Virus record (IMG/VR): IMGVR_UViG_2667528074_000004 | Coordinates: 1 to 42,710 of that record | From: a virus | Lineage: Duplodnaviria; Heunggongvirae; Uroviricota; Caudoviricetes | DNA: 42,710 nt | Strand: one strand, 5' to 3' | Shown here: piece after piece, positions 1,935 to 37,791 of the stretch | Layout: the number at the start of each line of letters is the position of its first letter | Numbering within the stretch: position 1 is the first letter of the stretch | The notes under the pieces: generated by a model | What the model was told of the DNA's origin: nothing | Database searches by the model: none | The model's input: only the letters and a program-made list of their open reading frames with translations | Made by a program: the position numbers and the translations under genes

Positions 1935-3164
1935 CTACGATAATGTAACAGTGATATCTGATTCCTGAATGGTTGGAACCTGGTCTATGCCCATAGTCAC
2001 AGCAGGTCCGTATAGCGAACCATCGAGAGAGACTTCAAGAGACAAAATGCCAACTGTATCAGGAGATATTGAAATAACAGGAGCATAGTATTTACCAGCA
2101 TTTATCGTAGAACCAATTCGTGCCTTTCCAATACCCTCATACCCTCCATTGAATACAGTGGCAACTATTTTCTTTACTTGCTTAGTTATATCACTTGGGG
2201 GGTTTAGTGAGGCATCAATATTTACCTTAAAGTAAACCCGAGTAGGTGATGCCTTTTGCCATTGCATTACGTAAGATGGATATGGTGGCATGTAATTAAC
2301 GTTATCGTAAACAGTGAACGTTGTATCACCATTCATATTGGCTCCGGGGTTATAAGTATTGAATATTGACTCAGCAACATCAGTATCAGCACCGCCATAA
2401 ACACAAATATAAACAGAATGCGCAAGAATCGGGAAATTCGTTGTTCCTTTATTTACTGTTTCTGCAGTTCTGTTTGACCATACGTAAGCATCAAGCACAC
2501 CATCAGTCGCAAGTAACGCGGCTAATGTAGATGCGTCCTGATTTCGACTGTTTCTGGCAACTGATTGTCTCCGGCGAGTTTCAAAGGCGATCCGTGATTC
2601 AACATCAACACCAACGACTCCAGGGCTAGTATTATTTACAGCATCCCACCCGGAAACGGCTCGATAAATCTGGTTCAGTGAACCTGCGGCACACGGAATC
2701 GGCCCGGTTGTTGTGTTGACAAACTGCACATCAACAGAGCCTGATGAGGGTATTACAGCATTATCAATTGACTGATATATATACCCGCTCGTATCCACAG
2801 CGGTACTCCCTGCTGGTATTGTTGTTCCAACCTGACCAATGCATGTTGCTGTAACAACTGTCCCCTGAGCAGCGATCCGCTCCATAAAGTAAATCCGACC
2901 AATCCCGTCCTGGAATCTGCCGGTTGAAAAGTCAGGGTTAATTTGATTAAACAAACAAAGAAGCTTGTCGTATTCCTGAGCGATAATTTCAGTGTCAGAC
3001 TGGGCGATCTGCCCTTGCGGTGAACTCAGTGACTGACTTGCGCCACCGCCAAGGGCCGTTGACATGTCTGTAAGTCTTCCCGCCAATACATCTGCTATAT
3101 CGGGGACTGAAAGACCGTTTTCAGTGATGGTTACATCAGGAACAGCCGTATTTAATGTCGTCAT
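1935..3164 (-). CDS. Baseplate J-like protein
   Basis: 409-aa ORF, synteny with Mu gp47 / baseplate J family. Confidence 0.6.
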   Translation of the reverse strand: MTTLNTAVPDVTITENGLSVPDIADVLAGRLTDMSTALGGGASQSLSSPQGQIAQSDTEIIAQEYDKLLCLFNQINPDFSTGRFQDGIGRIYFMERIAAQGTVVTATCIGQVGTTIPAGSTAVDTSGYIYQSIDNAVIPSSGSVDVQFVNTTTGPIPCAAGSLNQIYRAVSGWDAVNNTSPGVVGVDVESRIAFETRRRQSVARNSRNQDASTLAALLATDGVLDAYVWSNRTAETVNKGTTNFPILAHSVYICVYGGADTDVAESIFNTYNPGANMNGDTTFTVYDNVNYMPPYPSYVMQWQKASPTRVYFKVNIDASLNPPSDITKQVKKIVATVFNGGYEGIGKARIGSTINAGKYYAPVISISPDTVGILSLEVSLDGSLYGPAVTMGIDQVPTIQESDITVTLS

Positions 3165-31182: not shown

Positions 31183-31392
<210 letters not shown>

Positions 31393-31407
31393 TTAGTACA
31401 TGCAACC

Positions 31408-31477
31408 ATTATCACCGCCAGAGGTAAAATAGTCAACACGCACGGTGTTAGATATTTATCCCTTGCGGTGATAGATT
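31408..31477. promoter_or_regulatory. Right operator/promoter region: OR1 31410-31426, OR2 31434-31450, OR3 31457-31473; PR on minus strand, PRM on plus strand
   Basis: TATCACCGCCAGAGGTA, CAACACGCACGGTGTTA, TATCCCTTGCGGTGATA read directly; PR -10 attatc (31408-31413) and -35 agtcaa (31431-31436) on minus; PRM -35 tagata and -10 tagatt on plus; cI mRNA leaderless. Confidence 0.9.
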
Positions 31478-31480
31478 TAA

Positions 31481-32197
<717 letters not shown>

Positions 32198-32309
32198 TCG
32201 GCAAGGTGTTCTGGTCGGCGCATAGCTGATAACAATTGAGCAAGAATCTTCATCGAATTAGGGGAATTTTCACTCCCCTCAGAACATAACATAGTAAATG
32301 GATTGAATT

Positions 32310-33149
32310 ATGAAGAATGGTTTTTATGCGACTTACCGCAGCAAAAATAAAGGGAAAGATAAGCGCTCAATAAACCTGTCTGTTTTCCTTAATTCTCTGC
32401 TGGCTGATAATCATCACCTGCAGGTTGGCTCCAATTATTTGTATATTCATAAAATCGATGGAAAAACTTTTCTCTTTACCAAAACAAATGACAAGAGTCT
32501 GGTTCAGAAGATAAATCGCTCTAAAGCTTCAGTTGAAGATATTAAGAACAGCCTCGCAGATGACGAATCATTGGGATTCCCATCTTTTTTGTTTGTTGAA
32601 GGCGACACCATTGGTTTTGCCAGAACTGTTTTCGGGCCGACCACATCCGATCTGACAGATTTTTTAATCGGGAAAGGAATGTCATTAAGCAGTGGAGAGC
32701 GCGTTCAGATAGAGCCACTGATGAGGGGAACCACCAAAGACGATGTTATGCATATGCATTTCATCGGCCGAACAACGGTGAAGGTAGAAGCCAAGCTACC
32801 TGTATTTGGCGATATATTAAAGGTCTTAGGGGCAACAGATATTGAAGGGGAGCTTTTTGACTCATTGGATATAGTCATTAAGCCAAAATTTAAAAGGGAT
32901 ATAAAAAAGGTTGCCAAGGATATTATTTTTAACCCGTCACCTCAATTTTCAGACATTAGCCTGCGGGCAAAAGATGAGGCCGGAGATATTTTAACAGAAC
33001 ATTATCTATCAGAAAAAGGCCATCTCTCAGCGCCTCTGAACAAGGTCACCAATGCTGAGATAGCTGAAGAGATGGCATATTGCTACGCAAGAATGAAAAG
33101 TGATATACTGGAATATTTTAAAAGGCAGGTGGGCAAAGTTAAGGATTAA
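32310..33149 (+). CDS. rexA: RexA (Rex abortive-infection/exclusion system)
   Basis: 279-aa ORF directly downstream of cI; size and position as in lambda. Confidence 0.85.
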   Translation: MKNGFYATYRSKNKGKDKRSINLSVFLNSLLADNHHLQVGSNYLYIHKIDGKTFLFTKTNDKSLVQKINRSKASVEDIKNSLADDESLGFPSFLFVEGDTIGFARTVFGPTTSDLTDFLIGKGMSLSSGERVQIEPLMRGTTKDDVMHMHFIGRTTVKVEAKLPVFGDILKVLGATDIEGELFDSLDIVIKPKFKRDIKKVAKDIIFNPSPQFSDISLRAKDEAGDILTEHYLSEKGHLSAPLNKVTNAEIAEEMAYCYARMKSDILEYFKRQVGKVKD

Positions 33150-33164
33150 TTATCAGGAGTAATT

Positions 33165-33599
33165 ATGCGGAACAGAATCATGCCTGGTGTTTACATAGTA
33201 ATAATTCCTTACGTTATCGTAAGCATTTGCTATCTCCTTTTCCGCCACTACATTCCTGGTGTTTCTTTTTCAGCTCATAGAGATGGTCTTGGGGCGACAT
33301 TGTCATCATATGCAGGAACCATGATTGCAATCCTGATTGCTGCCTTGACGTTTCTAATCGGAAGCAGAACGCGCCGACTGGCCAAGATTAGAGAGTATGG
33401 GTATATGACATCGGTAGTTATTGTCTATGCACTTAGTTTTGTTGAGCTTGGAGCTTTGTTTTTCTGCGGGTTATTGCTTCTTTCCAGCATAAGCGGCTAC
33501 ATGATACCCACTATCGCCATCGGCATTGCCTCTGCATCGTTCATTCATATATGCATCCTTGTTTTCCAACTATATAATTTGACCAGAGAACAAGAATAA
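33165..33599 (+). CDS. rexB: RexB membrane protein
   Basis: 144-aa ORF with four hydrophobic segments; lambda position. Confidence 0.85.
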   Translation: MRNRIMPGVYIVIIPYVIVSICYLLFRHYIPGVSFSAHRDGLGATLSSYAGTMIAILIAALTFLIGSRTRRLAKIREYGYMTSVVIVYALSFVELGALFFCGLLLLSSISGYMIPTIAIGIASASFIHICILVFQLYNLTREQE

Positions 33600-33625
33600 C
33601 CCGGCCTCAGCGCCGGGTTTTCTTT
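33598..33625 (+). terminator. Terminator after rexB (t-imm)
   Basis: Stem CCCGGC / GCCGGG with loop ctcagc followed by TTTTCTTT. Confidence 0.7.
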
Positions 33626-33775
33626 GCCTCACGATCGCCCCCAAAACACATAACCAATTGTATTTATTGAAAAATAAATAGATACAACTCACTAAACATA
33701 GCAATTCAGATCTCTCACCTACCAAACAATGCCCCCCCCCTGCAAAAAATAAATTCATATAAAAAACATACAGAT

Positions 33776-33837
33776 AACCATCTGCGGTGATAAATTATCT
33801 CTGGCGGTGTTGACATAAATACCACTGGCGGTGATAC
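33776..33837 (+). promoter_or_regulatory. Left operator/promoter: OL3 33776-33792, OL2 33796-33812, OL1 33820-33836; PL -35 ttgaca 33810-33815, -10 gatact 33832-33837
   Basis: AACCATCTGCGGTGATA, TATCTCTGGCGGTGTTG, TACCACTGGCGGTGATA read directly. Confidence 0.9.
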
Positions 33838-33878
33838 TGAGCACATCAGCAGGACGCACTGACCACCATGAAGGTGAC

Positions 33879-33908
33879 GCTCTTAAAAATTAAGCCCTGA
33901 AGAAGGGC
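33879..33908 (+). promoter_or_regulatory. nutL (boxA CGCTCTTAA 33879-33887, boxB GCCCTGAAGAAGGGC 33894-33908)
   Basis: Matches lambda nutL as recalled. Confidence 0.85.
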
Positions 33909-34018
33909 AGCATTCAAAGCAGAAGGCTTTGAGTAGCGCGAAATGCAGCTGCAAGACAGCAACCGTGGAGATAAGCATCACGGCGCGTTACTCAAAGCTA
34001 ACTGACAGGAGAATCCAG

Positions 34019-34345
34019 ATGGATGCACAAGCACGCCGCCGCGAACGTCGCGCAGAGAAACAGGCTCAATGGAAAGCAGCAAATCCACTGTTGGTTGGGG
34101 TAAGCGCAAAACCAGTTAACCGCCCTATTCTCTCGCTGAATCGCAAACCGAAATCACGAGTAGAAAGCGCACTGAATCCGATAGACCTTACGGTGCTGGC
34201 TGAATACCACGAACAGATTGAAAGCAACCTGCAGCGTATTGAGCGCAAGAATCAGCGCACATGGTACAGCAAGCCACGCAGTGAAATGGGTGTGACTTGT
34301 GTTGGTCGCCAGAAAATGAAATTAGGCAGCAAACCACTTATTTGA
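34019..34345 (+). CDS. N: Antiterminator N (lambda-type; C-terminal tail differs from lambda N as I recall it)
   Basis: Start MDAQARRRERRAEKQAQWK (arginine-rich boxB-binding motif); track ORF start at 33929 rejected because PL/nutL lie inside it. Confidence 0.9.
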   Translation: MDAQARRRERRAEKQAQWKAANPLLVGVSAKPVNRPILSLNRKPKSRVESALNPIDLTVLAEYHEQIESNLQRIERKNQRTWYSKPRSEMGVTCVGRQKMKLGSKPLI

Positions 34346-34353
34346 GGTGAGAT

Positions 34354-34824
34354 ATGACAAAATCATGGAGCGTACCTTTTCCTGAATCAGAAACTGAACA
34401 TGATGGAATGCCTGTTTTCTGGAGATTCCAGGCGACAGTTGAAGAAGATGGAATCAAAATATTCGCACTTCAATATATAGCTTTTCATCAGACAGAGCAT
34501 TATGCATGGTTGGTTCCTGCGCATTGGATTGTTAATTTTAAACCAGCACCAAATCAGTGGTTACAGGAATGGAAACAAAAGAGAAATAGATATGCAATTA
34601 AGAAAGTAGCAAAAAATGCAGAAAGATCTTTTGCATTCCCAACGAAGAAACTTGCCATTGAAAGTTTATTGCGCCGGAAGAAATACCATTTAATGAGAAT
34701 CAAACAAGATTTGGCTGTTGTATCAACTCTTGTTGATGGGATGAAGAATATTGATACATCAACACCAGATATTGAATATAACTTTGGACACAACCAAGAA
34801 ACAGAAAACTGGGTATTTTATTAG
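34354..34824 (+). CDS. Hypothetical 156-aa protein, AT-rich, first gene after N
   Basis: ORF with SD GGTGAGAT 8 nt after N stop; roughly 38-40 percent GC by hand count; no recognised family. Confidence 0.55.
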   Translation: MTKSWSVPFPESETEHDGMPVFWRFQATVEEDGIKIFALQYIAFHQTEHYAWLVPAHWIVNFKPAPNQWLQEWKQKRNRYAIKKVAKNAERSFAFPTKKLAIESLLRRKKYHLMRIKQDLAVVSTLVDGMKNIDTSTPDIEYNFGHNQETENWVFY

Positions 34825-34836
34825 TACAAATAAGCA

Positions 34837-34868
34837 CTGTGTATTCATTCCAACGAGTGAATACACGG
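34837..34868 (+). other. Strong RNA hairpin downstream of orf156 (11-bp stem, 10-nt loop, no T-run)
   Basis: ctGTGTATTCAttccaacgagTGAATACACgg read directly. Confidence 0.45.
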
Positions 34869-34926
34869 AGCAATGTCGCTCGTAACTAAACAGGAGCCGA
34901 CTTGTTCTGATTATTGGCAATCTTCT

Positions 34927-34955
34927 TTGCCCTCCTATGTGAGGGCAATTTTTTT
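34927..34955 (+). terminator. Intrinsic terminator within PL operon (tL-like)
   Basis: TTGCCCTC-ctatgt-GAGGGCAA followed by TTTTTTT. Confidence 0.7.
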
Positions 34956-34967
34956 GACGGAGGATAT

Positions 34968-35936
34968 ATGAGTGAAGTAACAGATTTAGTTGTTATTGAA
35001 AAATCAAATGCAATGACTGTATTTCAGTCTGCCGACCAGATTGAAGAAATCCTTCAAAAGGTTGAACGTGAAGTTATGTCCTTTGTGCCTGATATCACAA
35101 CGGCAAAGGGCAGAAAGGAGATCGCTTCTCTGGCATATAAAGTTGCGCAGACGAAAACATATCTCGATGGTCTTGGCAAAGACCTTGTGTCTGAACTGAA
35201 GGAAATTCCAAAGCTAATTGATGCCAACCGCAAGACAGTGCGTGATCGCCTTGATGAGCTGAAAGCCAAGGCGCGCCAGCCTCTTACTGATTATGAGGAA
35301 GAACAGGCGCGGATTAAAGCCGAAGAAGAAGCTAAGGCAGCAGCTGAAGCTCTCGCAAAGCAAATTGAGTCTGACCATGAAATAGCGATTTTGATGGATC
35401 GAGAATTTGACCGCCAAAGAGAAGAGGCAAGACTCAAAGCGGAGCAGGAAAAGCGAGAGCATGAAGAACGCTTAAAAAGAGAAGCTGAAGAGAAAGCCAG
35501 AGCAGAAGCCGAAGCAAAGGCAAAAGCCGAAATTGAAGCAGCAGCAAGGCGAGAAGCAGAAGCTAAGGCCGCAGCGGAACGTGCAGAGCGTGAACGCATT
35601 GAAGCCGAGCAACGAGCACAGCGCGAAGCAAAAGAGGCAGCAGAACGAGCTGAAAGAGAAAAGCAGGCGGCAATTGAAGCAGAACGCCGAAAAGCACAGG
35701 AGGAGGCTGAACAAATCCGTCGCGATGCTGAAGAAAAAGAGCAAGCCAGAATAGCAGAAGAAAAAAGAATCAAGGACGAAGAAGAGCGTAGAGCAAAGGA
35801 TAAAGCTCACCGGAAAGACGTAAATAACAAAATACTTGCTGACCTTATCAAGGTTGGCGCATCAGAAGATGTTGCTAAAAATATCATAACAGCCATCGTA
35901 AAAGGCGAAGTATTCGCAACAAAAATAACCTACTAA
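34968..35936 (+). CDS. Coiled-coil protein with TolA-like Ala/Glu/Lys/Arg-rich repeat region
   Basis: SD GGAGGA then ATG 34968 (MSEVTDLVV...); central 190 aa low-complexity helix (KAEAEAKAKAEIEAAARREAEAKAAAERAERE...). Confidence 0.55.
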   Translation: MSEVTDLVVIEKSNAMTVFQSADQIEEILQKVEREVMSFVPDITTAKGRKEIASLAYKVAQTKTYLDGLGKDLVSELKEIPKLIDANRKTVRDRLDELKAKARQPLTDYEEEQARIKAEEEAKAAAEALAKQIESDHEIAILMDREFDRQREEARLKAEQEKREHEERLKREAEEKARAEAEAKAKAEIEAAARREAEAKAAAERAERERIEAEQRAQREAKEAAERAEREKQAAIEAERRKAQEEAEQIRRDAEEKEQARIAEEKRIKDEEERRAKDKAHRKDVNNKILADLIKVGASEDVAKNIITAIVKGEVFATKITY

Positions 35937-35960
35937 TAAAACCAACATAAGGAACCACCC

Positions 35961-36092
35961 ATGATTTACGCAATCGCGGGAGGCGCTCGCATGGGTGCCT
36001 TCCAACTAAATGAATCTTTACTTGAACGAATCACCCGTAAATTACGTGACGGATGGAAAAGAGTTGAGGTCTTATTATGCGCAATGAAATAG
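35961..36092 (+). CDS. cIII: CIII-like protein (FtsH inhibitor)
   Basis: 43-aa ORF (not in track) containing ESLLERITRKLRDGWKR, the conserved CIII core motif of lambda. Confidence 0.7.
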   Translation: MIYAIAGGARMGAFQLNESLLERITRKLRDGWKRVEVLLCAMK

Positions 36093-36229
36093 CCATCAAT
36101 CACCAGATGCTTCGTGCTGCACAAAACAAAGCAGTAATAGCCAGATTTATTGGTGATTCCAAAATGTGGCTTGAAGCAAATAAAGCGATGAAATCAGCTA
36201 TCAACCTTCCGTGGTATCGCAGGAAATGA
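36077..36229 (+). CDS. kil: Kil-like host division inhibitor
   Basis: 50-aa ORF MRNEIAINHQMLRAAQNKAVIARFIGDSKMWLEANKAMKSA... resembles lambda Kil segment ...TKFTIATFIGDEKMFREAVDAYKK; directly after cIII as in lambda. Confidence 0.5.
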   Translation: MRNEIAINHQMLRAAQNKAVIARFIGDSKMWLEANKAMKSAINLPWYRRK

Positions 36230-36304
36230 GTTTTACAGATAACTGGTCAGACGAAGAATTCATTCGTCAGATGAAAGAATTAATCGGTAACGAAGGAGAT
36301 ATTC

Positions 36305-36475
36305 ATGTCACTTGCAACCACAGTGAAGGAGAGCAAGTTACAGAGACGCATGTACACGCAGAAAGCTCTCTGGTATCGCCATAATGGTGACCGCGAAGGA
36401 ATGCGGGTATGCCTTAATTTGTCCCGAGTAGAAGTATTAAATCAGCGTTATTTCCTTGGGCCATGTCCATTCTGA
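36305..36475 (+). CDS. Small protein upstream of erf (Arf-like position)
   Basis: 56-aa ORF with strong SD GAAGGAGAT; alternative overlapping ORF 36226-36384 (52 aa, ATGA-coupled to kil) cannot be excluded. Confidence 0.35.
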   Translation: MSLATTVKESKLQRRMYTQKALWYRHNGDREGMRVCLNLSRVEVLNQRYFLGPCPF

Positions 36476-36485
36476 GAACAATCAT

Positions 36486-37091
36486 ATGAGCAAAGAATTT
36501 TACGCAAGACTGGCAGCTATTCAGGAGAATCTGAACGCGCCAAAGAATCAATACAACTCATTCGGCAAATATAAATACAGAAGCTGCGAAGACATTCTTG
36601 AGGGTGTTAAGCCGTTACTGAATGGCCTGTTTTTATCAATCAGCGATGAAGTTGTGTTGATTGGTGATCGGTATTACGTGAAAGCCACGGCAACTATTAC
36701 CGATGGCGAAAACAGTCATACGGCAACCGCTCTTGCACGAGAGGAAGAAAGCAAGAAAGGAATGGATTCTGCACAAGTTACGGGAGCTACAAGCTCTTAT
36801 GCACGCAAGTATTGCCTCAATGGTTTGTTCGGCATTGATGATGCGAAAGATGCAGATACCGACGAGCATAAACATCAGCAGAACGCAGCAGCAAAGCAAT
36901 CAAAGCCATCACCTACATCTGAACAGGTTCTAAAAGCATTCACTGACGCAGCAATGCAGAAAAACACCGTAGAAGAGCTTAAACAGGCGTTCGCCAAAGC
37001 GTGGAAGATGCTCGAAGGCACACCGGAGCAGCACAAAGCGCAGGACGTTTACAACATCAGACGAGACGAATTAGAAGGAGCTGCTGCTTAA
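36486..37091 (+). CDS. erf: Erf single-strand annealing recombinase (P22 Erf-like)
   Basis: Start MSKEFYARLAAIQENLNAPKNQYNSFGKYKYRSCEDILEGVKPLL matches P22 Erf as recalled. Confidence 0.85.
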   Translation: MSKEFYARLAAIQENLNAPKNQYNSFGKYKYRSCEDILEGVKPLLNGLFLSISDEVVLIGDRYYVKATATITDGENSHTATALAREEESKKGMDSAQVTGATSSYARKYCLNGLFGIDDAKDADTDEHKHQQNAAAKQSKPSPTSEQVLKAFTDAAMQKNTVEELKQAFAKAWKMLEGTPEQHKAQDVYNIRRDELEGAAA

Positions 37092-37474
37092 TGGCACATT
37101 CGATTACTGTAAGACTAAACAAGCCCGCAAGAGAGTTTCAGGCCGGGGAAAATATCGGATTCAACATCCGTGCTGGCGTTCAGTATTACGATCGCCAGAC
37201 AAAAAAGAAAGAATGGACAAACTACAGCGCCGTTGTATTTGCCAAGCCGGGAGCGCAAGCGGATTACTACCGTAGCGTTCTGGTTGAAGGAGGCATTGTA
37301 GAAATTACCGGAGAAAACATCAGGGTTGATGTTTATCAGGGGCAAAATGGTCAATCAATCACTCTTGAATTACTGAATGCAAAGATTGGATTTGCAACCT
37401 CAGGAAACAGCCAACAGCAGCAAAGTAGCAATCATCAAAATCATCCTGAATACGACGATTCAATTCCCTTCTAA
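37091..37474 (+). CDS. Small SSB-like protein with SSB C-terminal tip motif
   Basis: 127-aa ORF, TAATG-coupled to erf; ends ...QQQQSSNHQNHPEYDDSIPF resembling the E. coli SSB tail ...DDDIPF. Confidence 0.5.
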   Translation: MAHSITVRLNKPAREFQAGENIGFNIRAGVQYYDRQTKKKEWTNYSAVVFAKPGAQADYYRSVLVEGGIVEITGENIRVDVYQGQNGQSITLELLNAKIGFATSGNSQQQQSSNHQNHPEYDDSIPF

Positions 37475-37497
37475 ATTAGCAAAATAAGGATTCCATT

Positions 37498-37791
37498 ATG
37501 CCAGCGCCTCAGTATGGTGCGGATGACCCGCGCCGCTGTTCCGGCAATTCCGTATCGGAGGTGCTGGATAAATTCAGAAAAAACTACGACCGGATAATGT
37601 CGCTACAGCAGGAAACGAAAGAGGAAAAGGAATTTCGCCACTGTATATGGCTTGCAGAGAAAGAAGAACGCGAGCGAATTTACCAGACATCAATCCGACC
37701 ATTCCGCAAAGCCACATATACCCACTTCCCTGAAATTGACCCGCGCCTGCGTAATTACCGCTCACGCTATGGCGCTATCAGTAATGACTGA
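37498..37791 (+). CDS. abc2: Abc2-like anti-RecBCD protein
   Basis: 97-aa ORF downstream of erf as in P22; size and context; sequence match recalled only approximately. Confidence 0.45.

Follow-up and report, generated by a model that had tools for sequence, protein, structure and literature searches.

A member of the HK97 gp45/933W L0079 family between the N gene and the tL2a terminator of a lambdoid phage

In phage lambda, the part of the leftward pL operon located between the N antiterminator gene and the terminator tL2a serves as a restriction-alleviation and exclusion slot. It accommodates Ral, a small soluble early protein of 66 amino acids (aa) that is dispensable for growth, and SieB, a hydrophobic protein whose gene is annotated on the opposite strand. 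An early-left accessory gene is likewise present between N and cIII in P22 and H-19B, where it is known as gp17. Downstream of ral, the ral-ea10 spacer of lambda encodes the small RNA (sRNA) LPR1, renamed PreS, which has the early-left terminator tL2a at its 3' end (bioRxiv 10.1101/2024.10.31.621285). This Hfq-dependent sRNA of ~88 nt, processed to ~68 nt, belongs to the lytic cycle only, activates dnaN translation and represses alaS, and its sequence conservation extends to more than 2,500 genomes (bioRxiv 10.1101/2024.10.31.621285). Here, we address ORF156, a gene found in the corresponding place of the Caudoviricetes record IMGVR_UViG_2667528074_000004 of IMG/VR, which was analysed over positions 1 to 42,710 (hereafter, the window) and whose + strand runs in the direction of the lambda leftward operon. 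ORF156 belongs to the family of HK97 gp45 and 933W L0079, and the hairpin and terminator that follow it correspond to the PreS/tL2a element of lambda.

A widespread orphan gene behind N

ORF156 begins with an ATG separated by 8 nt from the TGA stop codon of N (34343-34345), and its Shine-Dalgarno sequence, GAGGTGAG, overlaps this stop codon. The gene is in that respect as described in the original prediction, made from the letters alone, which had however stated that the encoded protein resembled nothing recognisable. This statement turned out to be wrong: PHROG 1636, a family annotated as 'unknown function', matches residues 1-156 of the 156 with an E-value of 5.4e-112, and relatives were detected in 88 phage records by tblastn. 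The product is 100% identical to an ORF left unannotated in H-19B, 99.4% identical to 933W L0079 and to its counterparts in phi24B, Min27, BP-4795 and many Stx1/Stx2 phages, and 98.7% identical to HK97 gp45, which has the same length of 156 aa. In lambdoid phages, the gene lies directly after N and before a tL2a-type terminator, and HK97 and 933W share with the window both the upstream Shine-Dalgarno junction and the PreS/tL2a element behind the gene. With great confidence as to identity and anatomy, we regard ORF156 as a working copy of the HK97 gp45/933W L0079 gene, an accessory gene that stands by itself and is borne by a mosaic cassette.

The distribution of this gene is broad. It is carried by 598 of the 5,426 complete E. 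coli genomes (~11%), including the Stx phages of O157:H7, always under the label 'hypothetical protein', and the exact ORF156 protein occurs on at least 1,000 public contigs. Orthologues with 55-74% identity reside in Pectobacterium, Brenneria, Rosenbergiella and Cronobacter prophages, and an exhaustive profile search gathered 87 relatives of 130-165 aa. Across 22 orthologues, each 55-99% identical to the window protein, 40 columns are invariant, and the dN/dS ratio amounts to 0.07-0.16, with saturated synonymous sites. The gp45/L0079 gene is already catalogued and is an extremely common orphan, devoid of a gene name, of a Pfam family and of a relative with a solved structure, and no literature was found on the function of the family.

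Besides, the base composition of ORF156 is atypical, its GC content reaching 35.9% (GC3 28%) compared to 50.2% for N and 46.0% for the whole window. The low GC content announced by the original prediction is thereby confirmed, its hand estimate of 38-40% being slightly too high, and the composition of the region is not uniform: the lowest-GC stretch of 471 bp in the 42.7-kb window, with 35.2% GC, begins at 34377, within ORF156, and the 471-bp stretches that are as GC-poor as the gene account for 0.43% of all stretches of that length and nearly all overlap it. While such a differing composition is a feature of morons, ORF156 has neither a promoter nor a terminator of its own: pL is the sole promoter-like site upstream of it on the + strand, and the terminator behind it is a backbone element shared with lambda.

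Mosaic anatomy of the interval between N and tL2a

Upstream of N, the window is of lambda type, lambda 38200-35496 (cI, rexA, rexB, OL and pL) matching window positions 31224-33931 at 99.7% identity by blastn. The identity to lambda breaks off at 34275, within the 3' portion of N, and is restored from 34834 on, so that the intervening segment substitutes for the lambda stretch that holds the 3' end of N, sieB, orf28 and ral (Table 1). The original prediction located ORF156 in the slot of lambda ral and sieB, and this comparison places it exactly there. It also described an insertion after N followed by a hairpin and a terminator; the ORF is indeed foreign to lambda, but the two structures, as judged from the alignment, are conserved lambda backbone and lie outside the inserted segment.

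Although the slot is the same, the gene is another one. No match to lambda ral, sieB, ea10, gam or kil, or to gp17, was obtained anywhere in the window by tblastn, and ral and sieB are absent from every examined phage context carrying ORF156. In the same line, profile comparison with hhalign gave probabilities of 0.1% for Ral (with the profile of 74 family sequences), 0.6% for SieB and 1.4% for the H-19B gp17, thereby indicating none of the homologies that could have linked ORF156 to these proteins. Since gp17 and ORF156 stand next to each other in H-19B and PA28, they are different genes.

The N gene itself is a hybrid. It is of lambda type up to 34275, and its C-terminal end beyond this position (...SKPRSEMGVTCVGRQKMKLGSKPLI) is a diverged version of the lambda N end that belongs to the ORF156 cassette. 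In 933W, HK97 and H-19B, 48 nt of this N C-terminal region persist as a non-coding remnant between the stop codon of their own, unrelated N and the Shine-Dalgarno sequence of the ORF156 gene (positions 3005-3054 of the 933W locus L005 in the junction alignment), whereas the lambda-type N frame of the window ends 8 nt ahead of the ATG. PA28 has the corresponding stretch upstream of ORF156 and downstream of a small annotated ORF. The hybrid end of N (34276-34345), together with the remnants in the other phages, is, as far as these alignments indicate, a fossil recombination joint, and it suggests that the cassette was formerly joined to a lambda-type N. Among E. coli phages, the ORF156 gene is found behind three different N alleles, and the downstream genes differ each time: ssb/ea10 in 933W, gp17 in H-19B and PA28, cIII in HK97, and an ORF of 322 aa coding for a coiled-coil protein in the window as well as in Huey and 683R2. 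This diversity is consistent with a cassette that moves by flanking recombination, and the cassette would now shuttle between phages through recombination at its two borders, namely the N remnant and the conserved element behind the ORF.

Several features around the cassette can be mentioned. The leader between nutL/boxB and the start of N (33932-33992) is a different sequence of 61 nt, compared to ~109 nt in lambda and Huey. The lambda N leader is sensitive to RNase III and controls N translation; because this leader is replaced, the translational control of N may differ in the present phage. After tL2a, the 322-aa ORF (34968-35936), rich in Glu, Ala, Lys and Arg, belongs to phrog_1376, another family annotated as 'unknown function'. 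This slot holds ea10 in lambda and gp17 in H-19B, and the ORF of the 322-aa type is called 'TolA protein' in 683R2. A small ORF at 35961-36092 contains a cIII-like stretch of 35 aa that is 69% identical to lambda CIII, and the recombination system is of the Erf type, the erf gene being located at 36486-37091. The early region as a whole is a typical lambdoid mosaic, close to HK022, HK633 and phiv205-1. Finally, positions 1-22000, which lie upstream of the lysis genes and presumably form the virion module, have almost no counterpart at the nucleotide level in a set of 50,697 phage records, where the best hit, to a Vibrio phage, has 12% coverage at 70% identity.

Expression from pL and the PreS/tL2a element

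On the + strand, neither a promoter-like site between pL and ORF156 nor a terminator-like site between pL and 34927 was detected, the first such site after pL being the terminator that corresponds to tL2a. Placed 8 nt behind N and before tL2a, ORF156 should be transcribed from pL once repression lifts. In lambda, pL transcripts made without N terminate at tL1, shortly behind the N gene, and the region that holds tL1 is replaced in this phage. With this replacement and the lack of a terminator before 34927, ORF156 and PreS are probably part of the earliest pL transcript and could be produced in the absence of N. At the translational level, the layout of the N stop codon, Shine-Dalgarno sequence and start codon would allow coupling of ORF156 to N.

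The hairpin and the terminator pointed out by the original prediction are both real. The region from the ORF156 stop codon to the terminator (34822-34962, 141 nt) has a predicted folding energy of -47.5 kcal/mol, corresponding to a z-score of -4.45 against shuffled sequences. The ral-ea10 spacer of lambda (34045-33925) matches window positions 34834-34954 over 121 nt at 96.7% identity, and this PreS/tL2a spacer is almost invariant in 933W, H-19B and PA28. Since the spacer matches the lambda PreS locus and ends with a GC-rich hairpin followed by a U-tract, the terminator is tL2a, and PreS should span roughly the interval given in Table 1. Compared to lambda, the putative PreS carries a C for A at 34918, in a single-stranded stretch, and substitutions at 34936-34937, in the terminator loop; a change at 34947 converts a U.G pair of the stem into U.A, and one extra T is present (34949-34955). 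The upstream hairpin ends exactly at the expected start of the 88-nt PreS and may define the 5' end of this sRNA or shield the upstream message at its 3' terminus. An Rfam search of positions 33000-37500 returned no known RNA family, and PreS was not among its matches. As the terminator hairpin and U-tract of lambda are kept here behind ORF156 instead of ral, PreS would, in these phages, form the 3' terminus of the mRNA of gp45 and not of that of ral.

Table 1. Features of the early leftward region of the window, with the comparison or scan on which each is based.
Feature	Position	Strand	Basis
pL promoter, TTGACA-17-GATACT, within the lambda OL operators	33810-33838	+	promoter scan
N antiterminator gene, 108 codons including the stop	34019-34345	+	Pfam N36, E 3e-25
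Mosaic segment replacing lambda 35103-34046 (N 3' end, sieB, orf28, ral)	34276-34833	+	blastn against lambda
Junction of N stop, Shine-Dalgarno sequence and ORF156 start, TGAGGTGAGATATG	34343-34356	+	identical in 933W, HK97, H-19B and PA28
ORF156, 156 aa, ATG start	34354-34824	+	HK97 gp45/933W L0079 family, PHROG 1636
Hairpin of 11 bp, CTGTGTATTCA / 10-nt loop / TGAATACACGG, one G.U pair	34837-34868	+	fold; invariant in lambda, 933W, H-19B and PA28
Putative PreS (LPR1) sRNA homologue, 5' end approximate, from the length of ~88 nt	34868-34955	+	identity to the lambda spacer
Intrinsic terminator equivalent to lambda tL2a, 8-bp stem, 6-nt loop, T7	34927-34955	+	terminator scan, lambda alignment

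Possible roles of the ORF156 protein

The ORF156 product, a soluble, basic protein of a family specific to phages, has a mass of 18.6 kDa and a pI of 9.05. Its charge is unevenly distributed, the first 60 and the last 36 residues being acidic and residues 61-120 carrying a net charge of +13. It contains no hydrophobic or membrane segment, the highest Kyte-Doolittle mean over 19 residues being 0.56. With the deeper alignment derived from the profile search, AlphaFold2 produced a confident model (pLDDT 95.5, pTM 0.83), which comprises a long three-stranded sheet (19-30, 33-46 and 50-55), two short helices, a short strand (83-86) and, in the C-terminal part, a 33-residue helix (98-130) followed by an extended tail that ends in a conserved FGHNxETxxWxF motif. 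Across the wide family, little or no variation is seen at residues G33, T47, K87 and A101. A Foldseek search against BFVD gave 13 matches at E <= 1e-3, all of them uncharacterised phage proteins, including proteins of phiAxp-3, Delftia RG-2014 and Erwinia phiEa2809, which we take to be virulent phages, N4-like for the first two and Vi1-like for the third. A DNA-binding motif of the AP2-like or Int-arm-like type, suspected by eye in the stretch RSFAFPTKKLA, was not retained, as hhalign gave probabilities of 0.6% and 0.8% with approximate query sequences.

The genomic surroundings of the relatives are varied. The orthologue of the Brenneria and Pectobacterium prophages directly precedes xis-int and is not located beside N. 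Seven distant relatives were considered on metagenomic or chromosomal contigs: six of them lie within long same-strand runs of small early genes, and the seventh (P0074) is surrounded by genes of the opposite strand and adjoins a tail-terminator gene. DNA methylase genes were found near the relative in 5 of the 9 chromosomal or metagenomic contexts, and other genes encountered near relatives code for a Lar restriction-alleviation protein, RdgC, YqaJ, RecT, SSB, integrases and Xis/Int. The BASEL phage Bas81 carries a copy with 63% identity and the Klebsiella phage VLCpiS10a a homologue with 31% identity. In these two non-lambdoid phages, a ParB-like gene, the only recurring neighbour noticed, is present one or two genes downstream (locus L027, 3501-4798, and locus L026, 3459-5194, respectively).

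Taken together, these data lead us to favour, at somewhat less than even confidence, an explanation in which the gp45/L0079 gene is borne by the cassette, expressed from pL along with N, and active in the lytic cycle in counter-defence or host takeover. More precisely, ORF156 would be transcribed together with N immediately upon derepression and perhaps be translationally coupled to it, the 3' untranslated part of the common transcript would yield PreS, and the protein would act on a host or defence component, its basic centre binding nucleic acid or an acidic protein. The protein would thereby be an analogue of Ral in role and not in sequence. The lytic part of this proposal is in line with the copy in Bas81 and the structural relatives in presumably virulent phages; the methylase and Lar neighbours of the relatives, and the lack of ral and sieB beside ORF156, count in favour of counter-defence. 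Counter-defence or host takeover as the functional class is put forward tentatively, at roughly one chance in three. A bolder view, which we regard as possible but doubtful, would make the family, with a fold without solved relative and ~90 sequence relatives distributed over both temperate and presumably virulent phages, a new class of counter-defence or host-takeover protein that forms, with N and PreS, a three-part 'first strike' unit in the first pL transcript and stands in for Ral and SieB.

Nevertheless, a series of observations weighs against this explanation. No significant match to ORF156 was found among the Pfam, NCBIfam and PADLOC models, the sole PADLOC hit being a chance-level Cas1_II (E 0.0097), and the PDB, queried by sequence with the single protein or the 74-sequence profile, gave chance-level matches only. 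The genes flanking nine relatives on either side have no mutual similarity and reveal no conserved partner. The accessory slot is itself weak evidence, such slots also holding genes as unrelated in function as ea10/ssb, cIII and kil, and the basic centre fits a DNA or RNA regulator equally well. Finally, the possible synthesis of ORF156 and PreS without N is a reading based on intrinsic terminators only, Rho-dependent ones not being scored.

The protein could instead be a nucleic-acid-binding factor devoted to the DNA metabolism or regulation of the phage itself, be it replication, recombination, partition or transcription control, to which we attribute about one chance in four. The positively charged centre would suit such a factor, as would the near invariance of K87 in the 74-sequence family and the invariance of R91, R107 and K109 among close orthologues; the neighbouring recombination genes (RdgC, YqaJ, RecT and SSB) and the ParB-like gene point in the same direction.

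A gene expressed by the prophage to protect the lysogen by exclusion or defence, as a functional analogue of SieB or RexAB, appears improbable. ORF156 does occupy the sieB slot of lambda, its low GC content is moron-like, and the gene is very common in prophages. However, it lies on the same strand as, and downstream of, the repressed pL, with no promoter-like site of its own, whereas a SieB-type gene would have its own promoter in the lysogen and encode a hydrophobic protein; lambda sieB is moreover on the other strand, and PADLOC detected nothing beyond the chance-level Cas1. Of the two roles that the original prediction had guessed from the position, anti-restriction and superinfection exclusion, the latter is the less likely, because the protein has no membrane segment, the gene has no promoter, and relatives exist in phages regarded as virulent. 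An antisense ORF of 79 aa (34554-34793), considered as a sieB-like gene, was rejected, since the Brenneria and Pectobacterium orthologues do not conserve it.

Even less probable is a role in N-dependent antitermination, as a partner or as a modulator: it would explain why ORF156 always stands behind N in E. coli phages, but orthologues are found far from any N gene. As for a non-functional chance ORF, ORFs arise readily in AT-rich filler DNA and the antisense ORF is an example at hand, but the conservation pattern and dN/dS given above refute this idea, to which the 87 relatives, the confident fold and the loss of the antisense ORF in the orthologues are equally opposed, leaving it a negligible chance.

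With regard to the biology of lambdoid phages, the present analysis leaves current understanding unchanged. It corrects the picture of the locus, in that the 'strong hairpin plus terminator' behind the gene is the PreS/tL2a element, and it identifies a known orphan gene as a well-placed and confidently folded anti-defence candidate. Since the gp45/L0079 gene is located in the first-expressed part of the lambdoid genome, where lambda has its restriction-alleviation and exclusion genes, it would be a sensible and cheap target for anti-defence screening in HK97 or 933W.
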